64,000 nt of DNA from Puia sp. (GTDB lineage: Bacteria > Bacteroidota > Bacteroidia > Chitinophagales > Chitinophagaceae): positions 17,891-81,890 of the forward strand of contig JARLGZ010000278.1 in assembly GCA_031292515.1 (NCBI GenBank). Reading direction: 5' to 3'. Made by a program: the position numbers and the translations under genes. Below, in pieces: positions 37,017 through 44,681 of the stretch (its first letter is position 1; each line of letters opens with the position of its first letter). Below the pieces are notes generated by a model, which saw only the letters and a program-made list of their open reading frames with translations, did no database searches and was not told the DNA's origin.

Positions 37017-37385
37017 ATGAAGATCCTGGTGGCAGAAGATGAAACGATCATGTTGAAGACAATTGACTTCCGTTTGAAGAAGGACGGTTATGAGGTCTTT
37101 TTGGCGGAAGACGGACAAAAGGCCCTTGAAAAAATCGAGGAGCTGTCCCCCGATCTGATCATCACCGATATCATGATGCCTTACGCGTCCGGCCTTGAGA
37201 TCGTCGGCTTTGTGAGGAAGAACAAGGAGAAGAGGATCCCCATCATCATCCTGTCCGCCATGGGGCAGGAAGATGTCGTGCTGGAAGCGTTCGGGCTGGG
37301 CGCCGATGACTATATCACCAAGCCTTTCAGCCCCAACGAACTGTCGGTAAGGGTAAAGCGACTGCTATCGGTAACCGGCCGGTGA
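37017..37385 (+). CDS. Stand-alone CheY-like response regulator receiver
   Basis: MKILVAEDE...DLIITDIMMPYASGLE...IIILSA...DDYITKPF; 122 aa with no output domain. Confidence 0.95.
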   Translation: MKILVAEDETIMLKTIDFRLKKDGYEVFLAEDGQKALEKIEELSPDLIITDIMMPYASGLEIVGFVRKNKEKRIPIIILSAMGQEDVVLEAFGLGADDYITKPFSPNELSVRVKRLLSVTGR

Positions 37386-38533
37386 GCACCGGAAAAAATC
37401 ATTTATTATCAATGCCATTTTTAGAAGTCCATCCTATCCAATACCTGAAAACCGGCTACCTGGTCGTTGCCATGTTTGTATTGCTCGGCGTGCTGTTTTC
37501 CGTTGTCCTGTTTATGCTGCTCTATCTGCTCGCCAGGAAGAAACGGGAGAAGCAAAAGGAACGATGGCACCAGCCGGTCGACCTGCTTATCCGGCGGGCT
37601 ATTTTTTTTGAAGAGAGCCCCGACAGGATGCAGATCCCGATAACACCCGGGGTGAGCAGATGGCTGAAAAGGTCTTATTTCCGGCAATTCCTCCTCGACG
37701 AAATGATTACAGCCAAAAAGAGTTTCTCCGGCAATGCCGCCGAAAACCTGGTGAGACTCTATAACCAGCTGCGTCTTGAAAGACTTTCGCTGACGAAGCT
37801 CAGCAGCCTGAAATGGCATATCCGGGCTCGATGCATCCAGGAACTGGCCGCGATGGACCAGAAAGACCAGGTAGGAAAGATTTACCGGCTGACCAATCAT
37901 CCAAACGAATTCATCCGGATGGAGGCGCAATCGGCGATCGTCCATTTCTATGGGTTCGAAGGGCTGCGCTTTCTCGATGTGGTATCCCAGCCCATCTCCG
38001 AATGGCAACAGATCCAGCTGCTGGCGCAACTTCCAAAGACTTTGGGCGCCGGGTTGAAAGGCATGGAAAGCTGGTTAAAATCTTCCAATTCATCTGTCAT
38101 CTCGTTTGCGTTAAAACTCGCCCGGATTCACCGGCGGTTCGAACTGCATGACGCGGTGGCCGGTTGCCTGGATCATCACAATCCCGCGGTGCGCATACAG
38201 GCCCTGAAGTGTTTGCAGGATATTTGTAATGAGACGACGGCCACGCTGATCATCGGCCGCTATGAAAAAAACGACCGTCTTTATCGCATCGCGGCCCTCG
38301 AAACCCTGCAATGTATGGGGCCGGAGAGCGCGGAACAGCAGATCGGTTTCCTGCAAAAAGAATTGCTGAATGAAGACGATACGATCAAGCTGGCAACCGC
38401 CCGCGTTCTGGCGACCGTAAGCGGGCGGGGGACGCAGTCACTGGACGATTTTGAAAAGGCAGGAGAATATCCCTGGAATGAGATCATCCGCCAGGCGAAA
38501 GGTGAACAGACAAAAAGCGGGAAAGCGGCATGA
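37382..38533 (+). CDS. Membrane-anchored HEAT-repeat protein
   Basis: A single TM helix (LVVAMFVLLGVLFSVVLFMLLYLLA) is followed by the RKKREKQKERW stop-transfer. Repeated helical units with HPNEFIRMEAQSAI, HHNPAVRIQALKCL and DDTIKLATARVLA are typical of HEAT/PBS-lyase repeats. The GTG start overlaps the RR stop (GTGA); an alternative ATG is at 37412. Confidence 0.7.
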   Translation: MSTGKNHLLSMPFLEVHPIQYLKTGYLVVAMFVLLGVLFSVVLFMLLYLLARKKREKQKERWHQPVDLLIRRAIFFEESPDRMQIPITPGVSRWLKRSYFRQFLLDEMITAKKSFSGNAAENLVRLYNQLRLERLSLTKLSSLKWHIRARCIQELAAMDQKDQVGKIYRLTNHPNEFIRMEAQSAIVHFYGFEGLRFLDVVSQPISEWQQIQLLAQLPKTLGAGLKGMESWLKSSNSSVISFALKLARIHRRFELHDAVAGCLDHHNPAVRIQALKCLQDICNETTATLIIGRYEKNDRLYRIAALETLQCMGPESAEQQIGFLQKELLNEDDTIKLATARVLATVSGRGTQSLDDFEKAGEYPWNEIIRQAKGEQTKSGKAA

Positions 38534-39957
38534 GCTGGCAGCAAATCATATTTGGCTTTTTCAGCTATGGCATCCTGCTATACTCCCTGGTCTTGCTGGC
38601 ATTCTATCTCTTCATTGCGCTTTTTGCCATCGGGGAGATCCGTCACTATCTTTGGGCAAACCGGTTTACCGACTACCGCGTACTGGCGGTTTCTTCCAAC
38701 GCGCCGGGAATGAGCATTCTGGCGCCGGCCTACAACGAGGCCGCCACCGTGGTAGAAAATGTAAGATCGCTTCTTTCCATTCATTATAACAACCTGGAGG
38801 TCATCATCATCAACGATGGCAGTAAAGACGAGTCGCTGCAGAAGCTGATCGCGGAATATGATCTGCATAAGGTCGACTTTTTCGTTCAGGAGCGGGTCGC
38901 CACAAAAAAAGTGAGAGGGGTGTATAAAAGCGCTAACCCCGTTTTCCACAAGCTCATCGTCGTGGACAAGGAGAATGGCGGGAAAGCCGATGCGCTGAAC
39001 GTGGGGATCAATATCGCAGGCAAACCCTATATCGTATGCATAGATGTGGATTGTATCCTCGAACAGGATGCGCTGCTGAAAATGGCCAAACCCTTCCTGG
39101 AAGAGAAGGGTTATCGGGTCATCGCTTCCGGTGGCGTCGTGCGGATCGCGAATTCCTGCCTGATCAGGAATGGCCGGCTCGAGAAAGTCAATCTCCCTGA
39201 TCGATTTCTGCCGCGTGTGCAGACGCTGGAATATATCCGGGCTTTCCTGCTGGGCCGGATGGCCTGGAGCAGGATGAACGGACTCCTGCTGATCTCGGGG
39301 GCTTTCGGCGCTTTCGAAAAAGAGATCGTCATAGCCTGCGGCGGCTACAACCATAAGACAGTTGGTGAAGACATGGAACTCGTGGTCCGTATGCGCAGGT
39401 ATATGGAGGAGCGGAAAGAACCTTATAAGGTGACGTATATTCCAGACCCGCTCTGCTGGACGGAAGCCCCCGTCTCTTATAAGATCCTCGGAAGGCAAAG
39501 GAACCGCTGGACAAGGGGCACGATCGAAACACTCCGATTTCATAAGATCATGTTCCTCAATCCGCGCTACCGGTTGCTGGGGATGCTGAGTTATCCTTAC
39601 TGGCTGTTCTTTGAGCTGTTGGCTCCGATCGTCGAATTTGCCGGTATCGCCGGTCTGCTTCTGTCGGCTTTATTTGGCTTTCTCAACTGGTCGGTGTTCT
39701 TTGCGTTGCTGGGTTTTATCGTATCCTTTGGGTTCCTGTATTCGATATTTGCCATCCTGATGGAAGTCCTCACCTATAATCAATACAAACAATCGAAGGA
39801 TATCCTGCGATTGGTGCTTACGGCGATACTCGAGCCGGTTCTTTTCCATCCTTTTGTAGTATGGTCCGCCATCCGGGGGAATATAGACCTGTTGAGAAAA
39901 AAGAATAGCTGGGGAGAGATGACCCGCCAGGGGTTTGTCGTCAAAAAGAATCCATAA
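38530..39957 (+). CDS. Processive membrane-embedded family-2 glycosyltransferase (PgaC/IcaA/BcsA/NodC-like polysaccharide synthase)
   Basis: There are N-terminal TM segments. The catalytic motifs are APAYNEA...IIINDGSKD, KADALN, IDVDC (DxD), VGEDMEL (TED-like) and QRNRWTRG (QxxRW). Three to four C-terminal TM helices follow. The ATG overlaps the upstream stop (ATGA). Confidence 0.9.
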   Translation: MSWQQIIFGFFSYGILLYSLVLLAFYLFIALFAIGEIRHYLWANRFTDYRVLAVSSNAPGMSILAPAYNEAATVVENVRSLLSIHYNNLEVIIINDGSKDESLQKLIAEYDLHKVDFFVQERVATKKVRGVYKSANPVFHKLIVVDKENGGKADALNVGINIAGKPYIVCIDVDCILEQDALLKMAKPFLEEKGYRVIASGGVVRIANSCLIRNGRLEKVNLPDRFLPRVQTLEYIRAFLLGRMAWSRMNGLLLISGAFGAFEKEIVIACGGYNHKTVGEDMELVVRMRRYMEERKEPYKVTYIPDPLCWTEAPVSYKILGRQRNRWTRGTIETLRFHKIMFLNPRYRLLGMLSYPYWLFFELLAPIVEFAGIAGLLLSALFGFLNWSVFFALLGFIVSFGFLYSIFAILMEVLTYNQYKQSKDILRLVLTAILEPVLFHPFVVWSAIRGNIDLLRKKNSWGEMTRQGFVVKKNP

Positions 39958-40010
39958 AAAGAATCCATAAAAGAATCCATGAGAGCGAATGCAAAGGGGT
40001 ACGTAAAAAC

Positions 40011-42095
40011 ATGAATCGAAAAGAACCAATATCAATAGATAAGAGTAGTATGAATGATTTGAAAATACATATCCGCCTCTTCGCTGCTTTGTCGCTGGCG
40101 TGGCTGGTGATGATCCTCCTGTTGAGCGGCTATGAATTCCTGTCGAATGGGAGCGCTCCGGGTATCTGGGAGCATGCGGGTTCCCTGTTCCTGTACAAGT
40201 TGTTTAACGAGGGGGTATACTGGCTGGACTCCTGCGGATGGCTGCTGGTTTTTTTCATCGCCTGCTATTTTCTGTCGGCCCGGCTTGCCCGCGGGCTGAC
40301 TATGGTGATCATCGTGCTATTGGTATTGATACAATTCATGCTCGCAAAATATTTTTCCACGGCGTTTGTTCCGCTTGGCGCCGATCTGTATGGATATTCC
40401 TGGAAGGATATAAAACAGACGGTGGGCGCTTCCGGCAGCATGAATGCCGGCACGATCGCCATTTTCGCGGTCCTGGCCGGGATACCGTTTTTATGGCTTC
40501 GCCTTGCCTGCCGGCGGATCCGGATCCCCCTGCTGCCTGCCTTGCTATTGCCCTTGCTATCGGTGATCGCGATGACGGCCGGTCCTTCTCTTCTCCGGCA
40601 TCACGGGGTTTTCCCGTCAGATTTTGCATCGAACCTGGTCCTGAGCAAGCCCGGCTATTTTTTCAGACAGTCCCGGGATCATTTTTTCCCCGAGGAGCAG
40701 GAGACCGATATCTATGCGGACTATTATGCCGGGGAGACAGGCGGCGACGAGGGGCTTGCCGCCAATTTCCTATACCCGGACGAAACCGGCTATCCCTTTT
40801 TTCATGGCGACAGTACGAAGGATGTGCTGTCTCCTTTTTTCGCTTTGCGGGGACAGGACGGCCCGGCCCGCCACACGGAAACTGTCACTCCTCCTCATAT
40901 CGTCATTATCCTGGTCGAAGGATTGGGTCGCGCCTTTACCAACGAAGGCGCCTATCTCGGAAATTTTACGCCTTTTCTGGATTCCCTGGCCGGCCACAGT
41001 TTGTACTGGAAGAATTTCCTGAGTGAAGGAGGGAGGACTTTTGCCGTGCTGCCATCCGTGCTGGGATCGCTGCCCTTTGGCAAGAACGGGTTCCTGGAGA
41101 TGGGAGAGGGGATGCCTTCGCAGCTCTCATTGCTAAACGTGCTTAAGAGAGACGGCTATCACAGCTCTTTCTATTATGGCGGCGACGCTCATTTCGACAA
41201 TATGGATCTTTTTTTGCAGAAGGGCGGGATCGATGAATTAAATGACGGCAGATCCTTTCCGGCCGGTTATACAAAACTTCCTGCCGAAAATGGGTTCTCC
41301 TGGGGATATAACGATAAGGAATTGTTTCGCCGCTATCTGGAGACGCGGGCAGCCGTCCCTGCACAGCCGCAACTCAGCGTGATCCTGACGGTTTCGACGC
41401 ATAGTCCTTTCAAGATCAACGAACCCGATAAATACAGCCGGCTTTTTGAGAACCGGATGAACCAATTGGGTTTTGACGAGGCACAGAAGAAGGAGCACCG
41501 GGTCTTCAAGGATCAATATGTGAGTATCTTGTATATGGATGACGCGCTGCGCAGTTTCTTTGCAGCCTATGCCCACCGGGCCGATTTTCAAAACACGGTC
41601 TTTCTTATCACCGGAGATCACCGGATGCCTGAAATTCCCATGAGGACGAAGATCGACCGCTACCATGTGCCCCTGATCTTCTATTCGCCGCTGTTGAAGA
41701 GAACGGCTGACTTCCTTTCGGTATCGACACATTTCGACATAGCGCCCTCTTTGCTGGCCTTCCTGTCTCATGGTTATGGTATCAGGAGACCCTCCGGGGC
41801 GCAATGGATGGGCGCCGGGCTCGACACGGCCAGGGGCTTCCGCAACATCCATGCTTACCCGATGATACAGACCAAGACCGACCAGGTGGATTTCATCATG
41901 GGTGAATATCATTTGAATGGGACGCAGGTATTCCGGCTGTCCCCGGATATGAATGAAGAAGCTGTCACGGATGAAGACGGAAAAGAGATTGCCGGCCGAC
42001 TCGATAACGCATTTGGCAGGTTCCGTCAACGGAACGGGCGTATTACGCCCCGGGGAAAAATGGTTCCCGATTCGCTGTTGAAGGCCTATCCCTGA
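40011..42095 (+). CDS. LtaS/BcsG/OpgB-like membrane transferase (multi-TM N-domain plus extracytoplasmic alkaline-phosphatase/sulfatase-fold domain)
   Basis: About 5 N-terminal TM helices are followed by IVIILVEGLG, TVSTHSPF and LITGDHRMPE blocks characteristic of the sulfatase/LTA-synthase superfamily. Confidence 0.8.
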   Translation: MNRKEPISIDKSSMNDLKIHIRLFAALSLAWLVMILLLSGYEFLSNGSAPGIWEHAGSLFLYKLFNEGVYWLDSCGWLLVFFIACYFLSARLARGLTMVIIVLLVLIQFMLAKYFSTAFVPLGADLYGYSWKDIKQTVGASGSMNAGTIAIFAVLAGIPFLWLRLACRRIRIPLLPALLLPLLSVIAMTAGPSLLRHHGVFPSDFASNLVLSKPGYFFRQSRDHFFPEEQETDIYADYYAGETGGDEGLAANFLYPDETGYPFFHGDSTKDVLSPFFALRGQDGPARHTETVTPPHIVIILVEGLGRAFTNEGAYLGNFTPFLDSLAGHSLYWKNFLSEGGRTFAVLPSVLGSLPFGKNGFLEMGEGMPSQLSLLNVLKRDGYHSSFYYGGDAHFDNMDLFLQKGGIDELNDGRSFPAGYTKLPAENGFSWGYNDKELFRRYLETRAAVPAQPQLSVILTVSTHSPFKINEPDKYSRLFENRMNQLGFDEAQKKEHRVFKDQYVSILYMDDALRSFFAAYAHRADFQNTVFLITGDHRMPEIPMRTKIDRYHVPLIFYSPLLKRTADFLSVSTHFDIAPSLLAFLSHGYGIRRPSGAQWMGAGLDTARGFRNIHAYPMIQTKTDQVDFIMGEYHLNGTQVFRLSPDMNEEAVTDEDGKEIAGRLDNAFGRFRQRNGRITPRGKMVPDSLLKAYP

Positions 42096-42152: not shown

Positions 42153-43409
42153 TCATTTCTTTGGAAGCGTTCGATAATAGTCGTAGAATATCCTGTTCAT
42201 CATCGGCCTGTAGAAATTCCAGAAGAAGCCGACTCGCTGGTTGGGGTCGCTGGTGTCATAAAACAGCCAGCTGAAAAAAGAGATGCCCTTGAAGGGAGAG
42301 CTGCCCAGGCCGATGGGGTTGTCGCAGAAGTCACCGGAAAAATAATAGAAGCGATAATCTTCGCCCTGGTGGAACAATACCGCCGGGAAGCGGAGCGGTA
42401 TCCGGTGCTTTTTCAATTCGGCGGCGCCCGCTGCGTTGGCATGGATGACAAACTCCGCGCCGATCTCATTACGGGCAGAACCGGCAGGAGCCGGGTAGCC
42501 TGCGGAATCCGGTTTGTCTTGTCCGGCCGGTGAAAGCGGGGCCCTCGAAACCGAATCATTCAGGACAGGATTGGGATCGGTGATATCGAACCAGAAGGGA
42601 TACTTTGTCTCTCTCGGAAGGTCGAGGGCTTCCCGCCCGGTTTCCGTGCTCTCAATGACGGGTACCGCGTCGAGCAAGCCGGTGGACGTTTCCAGGACTA
42701 CGATCTGGTCGTCGTTGCTGACGAACGCAATGCCGTCGTGGTGAAAGGGCCACGCGCCCTCATGTTGCAGCCGGTAGTTGCCGACGAGCCAATGCGGCAA
42801 TTCACTGTTGACGGATGTGTCGAGTGAGGAGAAATAACGCGCCGTCCAACCCGTCCAATGCATGCCGAACAGACGTTCGAACCGGGTTCGGACCGCCGTA
42901 GCCGTAGGCGAGCCGATCGTATTGAATTCCGCGATCATCAGCTTGTGCCGGGCTTTCATGTTTTCCAGCAGACCGATATCTTCGGGGCTCATTCCCCCAT
43001 AGACAAGACCGGAGCGCCCGGAGACGGCTGTTTTTTTATACCATTCGTTCTTGTAGATGCCGTAGGTATCCGTGAAATAGACCCCGTCGGCATCGCCAGC
43101 GAGGGTCTTTAGCCGTTCGGAAGAGAATCGTTCGAGGCCCTTTAGTTTGAAATGGTCATCCTGACCGGGGAAAAACCCAAAATAATCGTGGTCAGGCTCG
43201 TACAGATCCTTTTTTGTTTTTGTGAATTTCTCGTGCCGTAATATCCAGTCGAGCGAGATATGTTCCTGTGCAAGGGGCGTGAGGACGGTCTTATCTACGA
43301 TGGCGACCACCATTTTTTTCCGGGGTGTACACACCCAGGCCAGCCACATCCATAACGGCAGGAGGAGCAGTATCACGAGCAGGAAAAGAAACCCCCTGGT
43401 CTTTGTCAT
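42153..43409 (-). CDS. Membrane-anchored protein of unknown function (no family recognised)
   Basis: 418 aa with an N-terminal TM helix FLFLLVILLLLPLWMWLAWV. Its ATG directly abuts the stop of the upstream porin gene (TAAATG). No recognisable catalytic motif. Confidence 0.6.
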   Translation of the reverse strand: MTKTRGFLFLLVILLLLPLWMWLAWVCTPRKKMVVAIVDKTVLTPLAQEHISLDWILRHEKFTKTKKDLYEPDHDYFGFFPGQDDHFKLKGLERFSSERLKTLAGDADGVYFTDTYGIYKNEWYKKTAVSGRSGLVYGGMSPEDIGLLENMKARHKLMIAEFNTIGSPTATAVRTRFERLFGMHWTGWTARYFSSLDTSVNSELPHWLVGNYRLQHEGAWPFHHDGIAFVSNDDQIVVLETSTGLLDAVPVIESTETGREALDLPRETKYPFWFDITDPNPVLNDSVSRAPLSPAGQDKPDSAGYPAPAGSARNEIGAEFVIHANAAGAAELKKHRIPLRFPAVLFHQGEDYRFYYFSGDFCDNPIGLGSSPFKGISFFSWLFYDTSDPNQRVGFFWNFYRPMMNRIFYDYYRTLPKK

Positions 43410-44681
43410 TTAGAATCGCTTTTGATAGCCTATGCCGATATCCACCTGATTTCCCCGCGTTCCCGGCAGGTATTCCTGGTTGATCAGGGTAGCCGTGGCA
43501 AAGACGACATTCAGTTTTTTGATGGCGTGGTTGTAACCTACGGACAGCTTATTCGATTTTAACTCATAATGGGAATTCAGCTGGATATTGTTGCTCAGAT
43601 CGTCGGGTGAAATGCCGGTGCCCAGCGCCAGGCTCAGGTAGTCGTCGGCCCCTCCATAATAGTAGCGGGTGGTGACCGTATAGGACTGGGAAATATTGCT
43701 GTTGCCGGGGGTGAGATAAGTACGGGCATTAAACCAGAAGTTCCTGTAATATTTACCCGCCGACAGGGTATAGATCCAGGTGTCGCTGCTGAAATACAGG
43801 TAGCGGAAGCCGGCTTCGGCCTCGAAGCTTTTTGGCAGGTTGGCATAGAGAGAAAATCCCGCCCGGTATTTGGGGAAAATGCCGACGTCGTGCGAATAGC
43901 CGGCGTTTATATAGCTGTAGAAGGTCCTCGATATCTTCGGGTAGGCATCGCCCTCTACTTGTACTCCGTTGCTGTTAAACCGGTTGGCATAATTGATGCG
44001 GCCGATGACGGCGCCGATTTTTGTCTGTCGTTTATAGTCCACGCTGGCGAGATGCCAGGGGGCGTTGAACTCCTTATCAAAATAGACATAGTCGTAATAG
44101 ACCCCCAATTGATTTTTTGCGGCTTTGAAACGGGTTTGCAGAGCCAAAGCCCGCGCCTCCGCATTTTTTGGATCGGTCCTCAGCAAGGTATCGGTTATCG
44201 CCGCGGACTCTTTGAAGCGGCCCAGATCGTTCAGGATCTTTGCTTTTTTCAGCAGGAGATCCCGGGAAGCGGGATGATAGAACAATCCTTTGTCGCACCA
44301 GGACAGGGCCTGGTCTGAGTGGTCGTTCCAGTATTCGAGATCGGTCATGGCGGCGGCGGCATCTTCGTTGTCCGGATGCCTGTCAAGTACATAACCGAGG
44401 GCCTGCCGGGCGCTATCTAAGTGGTGATTCCAGGCATAAATCCTGCCCAGAAAGACCCTGATGTCCGAATAATCGGGGCTTTTTTCAAGGGCCTTCTTAC
44501 ACCGTTCGATTGCCGCGGGATAGTCGTGGTCGCTAAATGCCGAATGCCTGGCCTGTTGAAATAAGTCATCCGCGGAAAGGGAGACCTGTGCCCGGGTCTG
44601 TAAGGGAAGTGCATTTAGTATCGTAAAAGAGAGGATGACCGTAAGAGGCCCAAAAAGGAGATTTCCAATAGGGTTTTTCAT
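43410..44681 (-). CDS. TPR-repeat plus YaiO-like outer-membrane beta-barrel protein (PgaA/BcsC-like architecture)
   Basis: Signal peptide, then ~180 aa of TPR-like helices (AIERCKKALEKSPDYSDIRVFLGRIYAWNHHLDSA...). These are followed by ~230 aa with alternating-hydrophobic beta-strand periodicity, ending IGIGYQKRF with a terminal Phe. Confidence 0.65.
   Translation of the reverse strand: MKNPIGNLLFGPLTVILSFTILNALPLQTRAQVSLSADDLFQQARHSAFSDHDYPAAIERCKKALEKSPDYSDIRVFLGRIYAWNHHLDSARQALGYVLDRHPDNEDAAAAMTDLEYWNDHSDQALSWCDKGLFYHPASRDLLLKKAKILNDLGRFKESAAITDTLLRTDPKNAEARALALQTRFKAAKNQLGVYYDYVYFDKEFNAPWHLASVDYKRQTKIGAVIGRINYANRFNSNGVQVEGDAYPKISRTFYSYINAGYSHDVGIFPKYRAGFSLYANLPKSFEAEAGFRYLYFSSDTWIYTLSAGKYYRNFWFNARTYLTPGNSNISQSYTVTTRYYYGGADDYLSLALGTGISPDDLSNNIQLNSHYELKSNKLSVGYNHAIKKLNVVFATATLINQEYLPGTRGNQVDIGIGYQKRF

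Follow-up and report, generated by a model that had tools for sequence, protein, structure and literature searches.

A probable LtaS/OpgB-type decorating phosphotransferase linked to the GT2 synthase of an exopolysaccharide locus in Puia sp.

Decoration with lipid head groups is already known for a synthase-dependent polymer, through BcsG, and for other glycans, through GacH and OpgB. BcsG adds phosphoethanolamine from phosphatidylethanolamine (PE) to nascent cellulose, and LtaS and OpgB transfer glycerol-phosphate from phosphatidylglycerol (PG), OpgB (MdoB) being the membrane-anchored periplasmic phosphoglycerol transferase I that decorates a GT2-made glucan in E. coli. Phospho-headgroups of this kind alter the material or biological properties of a polymer, as they do for phosphoethanolamine cellulose in E. 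coli biofilms and for streptococcal wall polysaccharides that carry glycerol-phosphate, and we know of no synthase-dependent exopolysaccharide of Bacteroidota that bears one. BcsG is an accessory inner-membrane enzyme in which a linker joins five transmembrane helices to a periplasmic domain of the alkaline-phosphatase fold (PMC11470070; bioRxiv 10.64898/2026.09.23.753746), and is recruited by BcsA for the production of phosphoethanolamine cellulose (PMC11470070). In streptococci, GacH attaches glycerol-phosphate to a polysaccharide via T530 (bioRxiv 10.1101/337519). The present analysis concerns a gene at positions 40011–42095 on the forward strand of a 64,000-nucleotide stretch of Puia sp. 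DNA (i.e., the window; contig JARLGZ010000278.1, positions 17,891 to 81,890), which lies directly downstream of a GT2 synthase gene and which a preliminary description, made from the sequence of the window, had labeled LtaS/BcsG-like and considered a probable polymer-decorating enzyme. The architecture and fold of the product (hereafter the transferase), its intact and conserved catalytic set, its genetic coupling to the synthase and its accessory distribution are shown by the analysis. The transferase is probably an LtaS/OpgB-type inner-membrane phosphotransferase that serves a synthase-dependent exopolysaccharide machine as an optional subunit for decoration; this machine would consist, besides the transferase, of a receiver, a HEAT-repeat protein, the GT2 synthase and a TPR/YaiO porin.

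The transferase open reading frame (ORF) is uninterrupted and translates to 694 residues. In agreement with the preliminary description, it begins 53 nucleotides after the GT2 stop codon at 39957, or 92 nucleotides after it if the alternative start at Met14 (position 40050) is used, as in the 681-residue entry for the same gene in the protein database (P0002). One search returned 1559 relatives and another 6185, and the ORF is therefore a real, conserved gene rather than a chance one. Five hydrophobic segments were noted on hydropathy analysis of residues 21–190, and five long helices (residues 11–45, 53–86, 90–118, 146–169 and 174–190) were present in an AlphaFold2 model calculated from an alignment of 128 diverse relatives (predicted local distance difference test, pLDDT, 93.0; predicted template modeling score, pTM, 0.92), which together bear out the earlier estimate of about five N-terminal transmembrane helices. 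The membrane domain thus delimited (residues 11–190, nucleotides 40041–40580) is followed by a partly disordered juxtamembrane linker of partly low confidence (residues 191–294, nucleotides 40581–40892; pLDDT dips at 230–250 and 280–290) and, from about residue 295, by an alpha/beta domain of the alkaline-phosphatase/sulfatase fold (residues 295–694, nucleotides 40893–42092), identified by Pfam, VIA-align and Foldseek. The Pfam Sulfatase model (PF00884) matched residues 295–584 with an E value of 1e-30 and a score of 107 bits (cut-off, 25), and full-length PbgA aligned to residues 6–682 of the model on VIA-align. Stretches rich in Arg and Lys, read from the sequence, occur at the N-terminus and at residues 87–95 and 166–172, a positive-inside pattern that fits a topology in which the N-terminus would be cytoplasmic and the catalytic domain periplasmic. 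The sulfatase-fold domain claimed earlier, its predicted extracytoplasmic position included, is thus upheld, and the three motifs quoted for it (IVIILVEGLG, TVSTHSPF and ITGDHRMPE) were located at residues 297, 460 and 533. Conservation extends outside the catalytic domain to the periplasmic loop between the third and fourth transmembrane helices (PLGADLYGYS..DIKQT), to residues Y114, L122, Y129 and K213, which are near-invariant among relatives, and to the linker, where K213 and the motif YPF.H..DVL are conserved as invariant columns.

Alignment of the transferase with Staphylococcus aureus LtaS (2w5q) placed E303, T343, H464, D536 and H537 opposite E255, T300, H416, D475 and H476, of which E255, D475 and H476 are metal ligands of LtaS, T300 is its nucleophile and H416 contacts phosphate (bioRxiv 10.1101/337519). 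All of the corresponding codons are on the forward strand, at 40917–40919 for Glu303, 41037–41039 for Thr343, the predicted nucleophile, 41400–41402 for His464 and 41616–41621 for Asp536-His537. Among the 128 relatives (29–73% identity), R342, which immediately precedes the nucleophile, was invariant, as were H464, D536 and H537, while E303 was kept in 124 and position 343 was occupied by Thr in 117 and by Ser in the other 11. In the pseudoenzyme LapC/PbgA, the site of Asp536-His537 is instead occupied by Gly-Arg. Thus, with the catalytic set intact and conserved and the pair lost by LapC retained, the transferase is very probably active as an enzyme. A broader alignment, with LtaS, OpgB, BcsG and E. 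coli EptB, the last as a member of the EptA family, also had every nucleophile and metal-ligand residue in place, so that the preliminary reading of the protein as a transferase stands on this point.

Results of sequence, profile and fold comparisons agreed in placing the transferase within the LtaS/LtaP/OpgB/PbgA clade. By sequence, the best relative of solved structure was the uncharacterized protein VP1736 of Vibrio (PDB 3lxq; E value 6e-19, or 4e-22 with a profile), followed by LtaS and LtaP from S. aureus, Bacillus subtilis and Listeria and then by PbgA/YejM; no EptA, MCR, BcsG or GacH chain was returned from the solved structures at E values up to 1. The order was the same by fold, as VIA-align Z scores for the transferase model were 36.1 for 3lxq, 34.0 for LtaP, 33.8–32.7 for LtaS and about 31–29 for YejM/PbgA, compared with 24–28 for ordinary sulfatases and 24.2 for EptC, and Foldseek ranked the matches in the same way; neither BcsG nor GacH was among the 50 matches listed by either fold search. 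In profile comparisons with E. coli proteins performed with hhalign, the probability was 98.2% for OpgB (E value 6e-14, 361 columns) and 82.9% for LapC/PbgA. NCBIfam scores were far under the equivalog cut-offs, i.e., 45.7 bits against 970 for LtaS and 38.5 against 572 and 23.1 against 574 for the two OpgB models, and therefore, given the matches to the clade, the transferase stands on a branch of its own within the LtaS/OpgB lineage and is an ortholog of neither LtaS nor OpgB.

Three other assignments were considered and rejected. Homology to BcsG was rejected because no match to the Pfam BcsG model was found in the transferase at E values up to 0.01, because the hhalign probability was 12.8% over 111 columns and because BcsG was absent from the sequence search described above. 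Membership in the EptA/MCR/EptB/EptC group was rejected on the basis of an hhalign probability of 11.6% for EptB and a Z score for EptC well below the 33–36 seen with the LtaS group, and a PbgA/YejM/LapC-type pseudoenzyme on the basis of the retained Asp536-His537 pair. Accordingly, the LtaS half of the label first given to the gene was supported by sequence, profile and fold, while the BcsG half failed as a statement of homology (hhalign, 13%).

The acceptor polymer is presumably made by the processive GT2 synthase encoded immediately upstream (38530–39957, forward strand), which was recognized by Pfam and NCBIfam and by its DxD, GED and QRNRW motifs and in which D172, D281, Q323, R324 and W327 were identified as the invariant residues. 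By NCBIfam it is PgaC/IcaA-like and not a BcsA. Sequence comparison with the Protein Data Bank gave only weak N-terminal matches, e.g., to chondroitin synthase, and narrowed the type of polymer no further than PgaC/IcaA-like. The C-terminal tail of the synthase is rich in Lys and Arg, which is consistent with a cytoplasmic C-terminus that would match the predicted cytoplasmic start of the transferase.

The transferase is linked to this synthase by natural fusions of the two proteins. At least nine full-length, uninterrupted single-ORF fusions were found, including one of 1141 residues (P0162) present on at least 21 contigs, one of them a complete chromosome, one of 1192 residues (P0123) on a 1.9-Mb contig, a third (P0182) and six further uninterrupted ORFs of 1144–1260 residues, the six being distributed over five of the genomes in a sample of 401 species. 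In a FastTree phylogeny of the transferase domain, the fusions were divided between two or more clades, each with support of its own and with unfused members as neighbors. Fusions of the transferase to the receiver (P0127) and to the HEAT protein (P0194) were also found, and many relatives of about 820 residues (e.g., P0140, P0163 and P0175) carry a C-terminal TPR domain. The operon that encodes P0140 is co-directional, with genes for receiver, HEAT protein, GT2, transferase-TPR and YaiO, and has no gene for the unnamed 418-residue protein found beside the transferase in the window. P0163, itself a transferase-TPR protein, comes from a metagenome-assembled genome of Gemmatimonadaceae, and the family therefore extends beyond Bacteroidota. 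A further variant, noted in a metagenome-assembled genome of Bacteroidales (L088:8001-11618), is a transferase of 1205 residues with an N-terminal Acyl_transf_3 domain; its neighbors (an MBOAT protein, an unnamed 495-residue protein and a 760-residue GT2) indicate a polysaccharide locus of another type, in which several enzymes of modification are encoded. The TPR and Acyl_transf_3 fusions hint at periplasmic glycan handling. The fusions with GT2 point to proximity of synthase and transferase. Prediction of a complex between GT2 and residues 1–290 of the transferase gave a score of 0.00 in two runs, which is evidence neither way.

Coupling to the synthase was also apparent from gene order. A set of 80 loci was drawn from the genomes of species in four orders (Chitinophagales, Sphingobacteriales, Flavobacteriales and Cytophagales), and 74 of these had enough upstream flank for comparison. 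A GT2 gene on the same strand ended no more than 400 nucleotides upstream of the transferase in 60 of the 74; in the remainder, GT2 abutted or overlapped the transferase match in three and was elsewhere in the locus in six. In three loci where the transferase was accompanied by just the unnamed protein and the barrel, an ortholog of GT2 (58–59% identity) was encoded elsewhere in the same genome.

The relationship between the two genes is one-sided, as was evident from a survey of 401 Bacteroidota species genomes with a threshold of 1e-40 for the transferase. A GT2 ortholog was found in 90 genomes and the transferase in 30, of which 29 also contained the GT2 ortholog, in most cases no more than 6 kb away on one contig or fused to the transferase, whereas 61 of the 90 GT2-positive genomes had no transferase at this threshold and 29 had one. 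In none of 16 inspected loci from transferase-free genomes did a family hidden Markov model detect a transferase as far as about 9 kb from GT2. The transferase is thus nearly always accompanied by GT2 while GT2 often occurs without a transferase, so that dependence runs one way, from the transferase to the module. Such a distribution is what would be expected of an optional decorating enzyme, and BcsG is distributed in this way among cellulose operons. Together with the fusions and the conserved gene order across four orders of Bacteroidota, it favors the earlier proposal of a decorating enzyme linked to the synthase, whose chemistry of transfer would follow by analogy.

Seven of the 16 transferase-free loci (L094, L096, L097, L098, L100, L105 and L106) have a compact co-directional operon of receiver, TPR/YaiO, HEAT and GT2 genes, with neither the transferase nor the unnamed protein; their HEAT protein is shorter, i.e., about 235–280 residues in six and 377 residues in L100. 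The unnamed protein is optional as well, since it is missing from the fused loci and is kept in the absence of the transferase in another locus (L107). In one genome (G193:C138:45073-47031), a transferase ortholog directly after GT2 is interrupted by a single in-frame TAA, which may mark a pseudogene or a sequencing error.

The best-surviving alternative, although an unlikely one, is that no head group is transferred to the polymer, the protein being either a hydrolase (a phosphodiesterase or a sulfatase) by which the chain is trimmed or set free, or chiefly a structural or stabilizing subunit. The fold is common to many hydrolases, PbgA/LapC is a member of the same clade that has a structural or signaling role and no catalysis, and the fusions demonstrate proximity rather than chemistry. 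A noncatalytic role is, however, difficult to reconcile with retention of the full catalytic set, nucleophile included, in nearly all of the 128 relatives, unlike the situation in LapC, and a core structural part is difficult to reconcile with the many synthase modules that function without a transferase. Soluble sulfatases use formylglycine, and lipid-using transferases are typically proteins with multiple transmembrane helices. The nucleophile here is Thr or Ser instead of formylglycine, and the membrane domain, with its several helices and conserved periplasm-facing residues, is of the kind typical of lipid-using transferases.

A mechanism for polymer decoration can be proposed from what is known of LtaS, GacH, OpgB and BcsG, from which we infer the transfer itself as well as its donor, its acceptor and the contact with the synthase. 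The five-helix domain, with its conserved loop between the third and fourth helices, would present an outer-leaflet phospholipid of the inner membrane to the active site in the periplasm, where a metal held by Glu303, Asp536 and His537 would activate Thr343 for attack on the phosphodiester. Diacylglycerol would then depart, leaving a covalent phospho-headgroup-Thr intermediate, and the phospho-headgroup would be taken over by a hydroxyl of the glycan as it emerges from the adjacent GT2 channel. The decorated polymer would finally exit via the TPR/YaiO barrel.

Differences from LtaS were noted in the pocket that would receive the head group. H347 and R356 of LtaS, like H580 and R589 of GacH, hold the glycerol moiety (bioRxiv 10.1101/337519). 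In the alignment these residues of LtaS were replaced by Y389 and M398 in the transferase, and W354 of LtaS by Asp. Position 389 was mostly Tyr (74 of the 128 relatives) and position 398 was Met, Gln or Glu, the family motif YYGGDxxFDNM, which is common with VP1736, standing in place of HGDxxxFWNRD. OpgB has Gln and Lys at the positions of H347 and R356, and the His/Arg pair may thus be a mark of LtaS and GacH, not of the whole clade.

The lipid genes of the host were examined in its genome (G000), which is 99% complete. Genes were identified for a phosphatidylserine decarboxylase (142 bits), for a BT1523-type phosphatidylinositol-phosphate synthase (389 bits) and for an enzyme resembling PssA, the host lipid genes lying on contigs C34, C285, C199 and C99 (L090–L092). 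No PgsA was found in the host above the cut-off, the best score being 40.8 bits against 109; the best candidate, a CDP-alcohol transferase of 200 residues, scored 40.7 bits when scanned as protein. Nor was anything above the cut-off found in four of five other carriers of the transferase. The fifth scored 131 bits, and the PgsA model is therefore able to detect PgsA of Bacteroidota. PE is described as the dominant phospholipid of Bacteroidetes and PG as small in amount or unusual (PMC5167729). Because PE is made, because no recognizable PG synthase was found in the host or in four of the five other carriers, and because the glycerol contacts are replaced, phosphoethanolamine is slightly favored over glycerol-phosphate as the transferred group. 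Provided that the polymer is decorated, we regard phosphoethanolamine from PE as about an even prospect and, with less expectation and to equal degree, consider glycerol-phosphate from PG or another group such as phosphoinositol.

These observations on pocket and donor also bear on a second alternative, namely that the transferase is a true LtaS-like polymerase or primase that builds a teichoic-acid-like chain of polyglycerol-phosphate, or primes one by attaching the initial unit, with a glycolipid or the GT2 glycan as the carrier, so that the product would be a phosphodiester polymer as opposed to a lightly decorated polysaccharide. LtaP and LtaS are indeed the nearest characterized structures, and the number of transmembrane helices and the catalytic residues are those of LtaS. 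Even so, such an activity is improbable given the loss of the H347 and R356 glycerol contacts, the lack of a recognizable PG synthase in the host and most other carriers, and the low score with the NCBIfam LtaS model. Moreover, GT2 has the motifs of a processive synthase and C-terminal transmembrane helices typical of polysaccharide translocation, and the locus encodes an outer-membrane barrel with TPR, as in glycan exporters. A third alternative, in which the transferase would act on another acceptor such as lipid A/LPS, periplasmic glucans or protein and stand beside the synthase through shared regulation alone, gains something from the similarity to OpgB, since OpgB and EptA-type enzymes use acceptors such as lipid A/LPS and periplasmic glucans, but is very unlikely in view of the repeated independent fusions to GT2 and other proteins of the module, the presence of GT2 in 29 of 30 transferase genomes and the TPR fusions within the same operon.

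Polymer decoration by the transferase could be developed into a more specific proposal, which we hold tentatively and judge to have somewhat less than an even chance of being correct. According to this proposal, an enzyme of the LtaS/OpgB lineage was recruited independently of BcsG and transfers phosphoethanolamine, or another non-glycerol group such as phosphoinositol, from the PE-rich, PG-poor membranes of Bacteroidota to a PgaC-like exopolysaccharide. If true, it would be a donor specificity new to the clade of LtaS and would imply a matrix polymer, zwitterionic or charged, of a new class; it would also represent convergent evolution repeatedly fixed by selection as a single synthase-transferase polypeptide. 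Several points weigh against the reading as a decorating phosphotransferase and against this choice of donor. To our knowledge, every characterized enzyme of the clade (LtaS, LtaP, GacH and OpgB) moves glycerol-phosphate, not phosphoethanolamine, and all known phosphoethanolamine transferases belong to the EptA and BcsG clades, to which the transferase is only remotely similar by hhalign and VIA-align. The residues of the pocket are weak evidence on the donor, because OpgB, a true glycerol-phosphate transferase, also deviates from LtaS at these positions. The 200-residue CDP-alcohol transferase of the host could be a divergent PgsA, and a cardiolipin-synthase-like gene scored 161 bits, below the cut-off of 290, so that PG may be present. 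Finally, the AlphaFold2 model of the fused protein P0162 from a mixed alignment, although its domains were confident (pLDDT 89.8), gave no defined placement of the transferase over the synthase (pTM 0.58).

The other genes of the locus recur with the transferase. Genes for a stand-alone receiver and a HEAT-repeat protein, identified by Pfam, occupy 37017–38533 on the forward strand in the same operon as GT2, and were found in 65 and 70, respectively, of the 74 loci compared. Downstream, on the reverse strand (42153–44681), lies a convergent pair of genes for the unnamed 418-residue protein and the TPR/YaiO outer-membrane barrel (Pfam YaiO, E value 2e-77), the latter being the presumed export porin; these were found downstream of the transferase in 66 and 69 of the 74 loci and were convergent in most.

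A 13-nucleotide tandem repeat in three copies (unit AAAAAGAATCCAT), detected with TRF at 39943–39980 on the forward strand, spans the stop codon of GT2. The transferase frame is open back into the 3' end of GT2, and an array of one copy would yield an in-frame GT2-transferase fusion of 1179 residues like those that occur naturally. A two-copy form, 12 nucleotides shorter and with both genes unchanged, was noted on contigs of two other assemblies, one from a sample that may be the source and one from an unrelated study; the number of copies either varies or depends on assembly. The one-copy allele was not found among assembled contigs, which drop rare variants, and no such repeat was found in the closest relative. 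The probability of the coincidence of frames by chance was roughly estimated at 0.14 (about 0.4 for an open frame over 18 codons multiplied by 1/3 for the matching frame), and the coincidence is therefore not compelling. Two 151-nucleotide contigs of a peat metatranscriptome matched the 3' end of GT2 (39663–39961) without a difference and ended within the repeat, too little for a claim of expression, the transferase not being covered.

Compared with the systems named at the outset, the locus has its nearest analogy in the recruitment of BcsG by BcsA, which may serve as a guide to assembly of the synthase and transferase studied here. As with BcsG, the transferase is an operon-encoded accessory of a GT2 synthase, is present in a subset of synthase operons and has the same layout, and a shared role may be supposed. 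The differences are that the two enzymes have no homology at the family level (12.8% by hhalign), that the synthase is PgaC/IcaA-like whereas that of BcsG is BcsA, that a phospho-receiver and a HEAT protein exert control in place of cyclic di-GMP parts, and that natural synthase-transferase fusions occur in the family described here. GacH/SccH has in common with the transferase an LtaS-related extracytoplasmic domain, a polytopic membrane anchor, a Thr nucleophile, a metal site of Glu, Asp and His and a gene within a polysaccharide locus (bioRxiv 10.1101/337519), but differs in having eleven transmembrane helices, in belonging to a Gram-positive wall pathway and in keeping H580 and R589, as opposed to five helices, a diderm synthase-dependent system and Tyr and Met at the glycerol contacts. 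Among named Gram-negative relatives, OpgB comes closest to the transferase in profile comparison. Its gene, however, lies amid unrelated genes while the transferase is tightly linked or fused to its synthase, and the acceptor of the transferase is presumably an exported polymer with an outer-membrane porin of its own. LtaS, LtaP and VP1736 provide the best structural and sequence matches, with the same layout of five transmembrane helices and an alkaline-phosphatase-fold domain and an identical catalytic set, yet identity to the transferase is 17–21%, the LtaS pocket has H347, W354 and R356 in place of Tyr, Asp and Met, and the host is a diderm apparently without a canonical PG synthase.

No description of the module or of VP1736 was found in literature on YaiO with glycosyltransferase and exopolysaccharide, on 3LXQ or on the 'LTA synthase family protein' of Bacteroidetes. 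If polymer decoration by the transferase is correct, a polymer decorated with a lipid head group is made by about one third of those Bacteroidota of soil and fresh water in which this synthase occurs. The natural fusions would then provide a single-chain model of nascent-glycan modification at the synthase exit, and the choice between PE and PG as donor in hosts without a recognizable PG synthase would be a direct test of how specificity evolved in the LtaS clade. Relative to the known systems, the novelty lies in the enzyme's lineage, the phylum of its host, the kind of synthase it accompanies, a phosphorelay setting and fusions that recur, and the transferase would most likely be an undescribed Bacteroidota counterpart of the modification of E. 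coli cellulose by BcsG.

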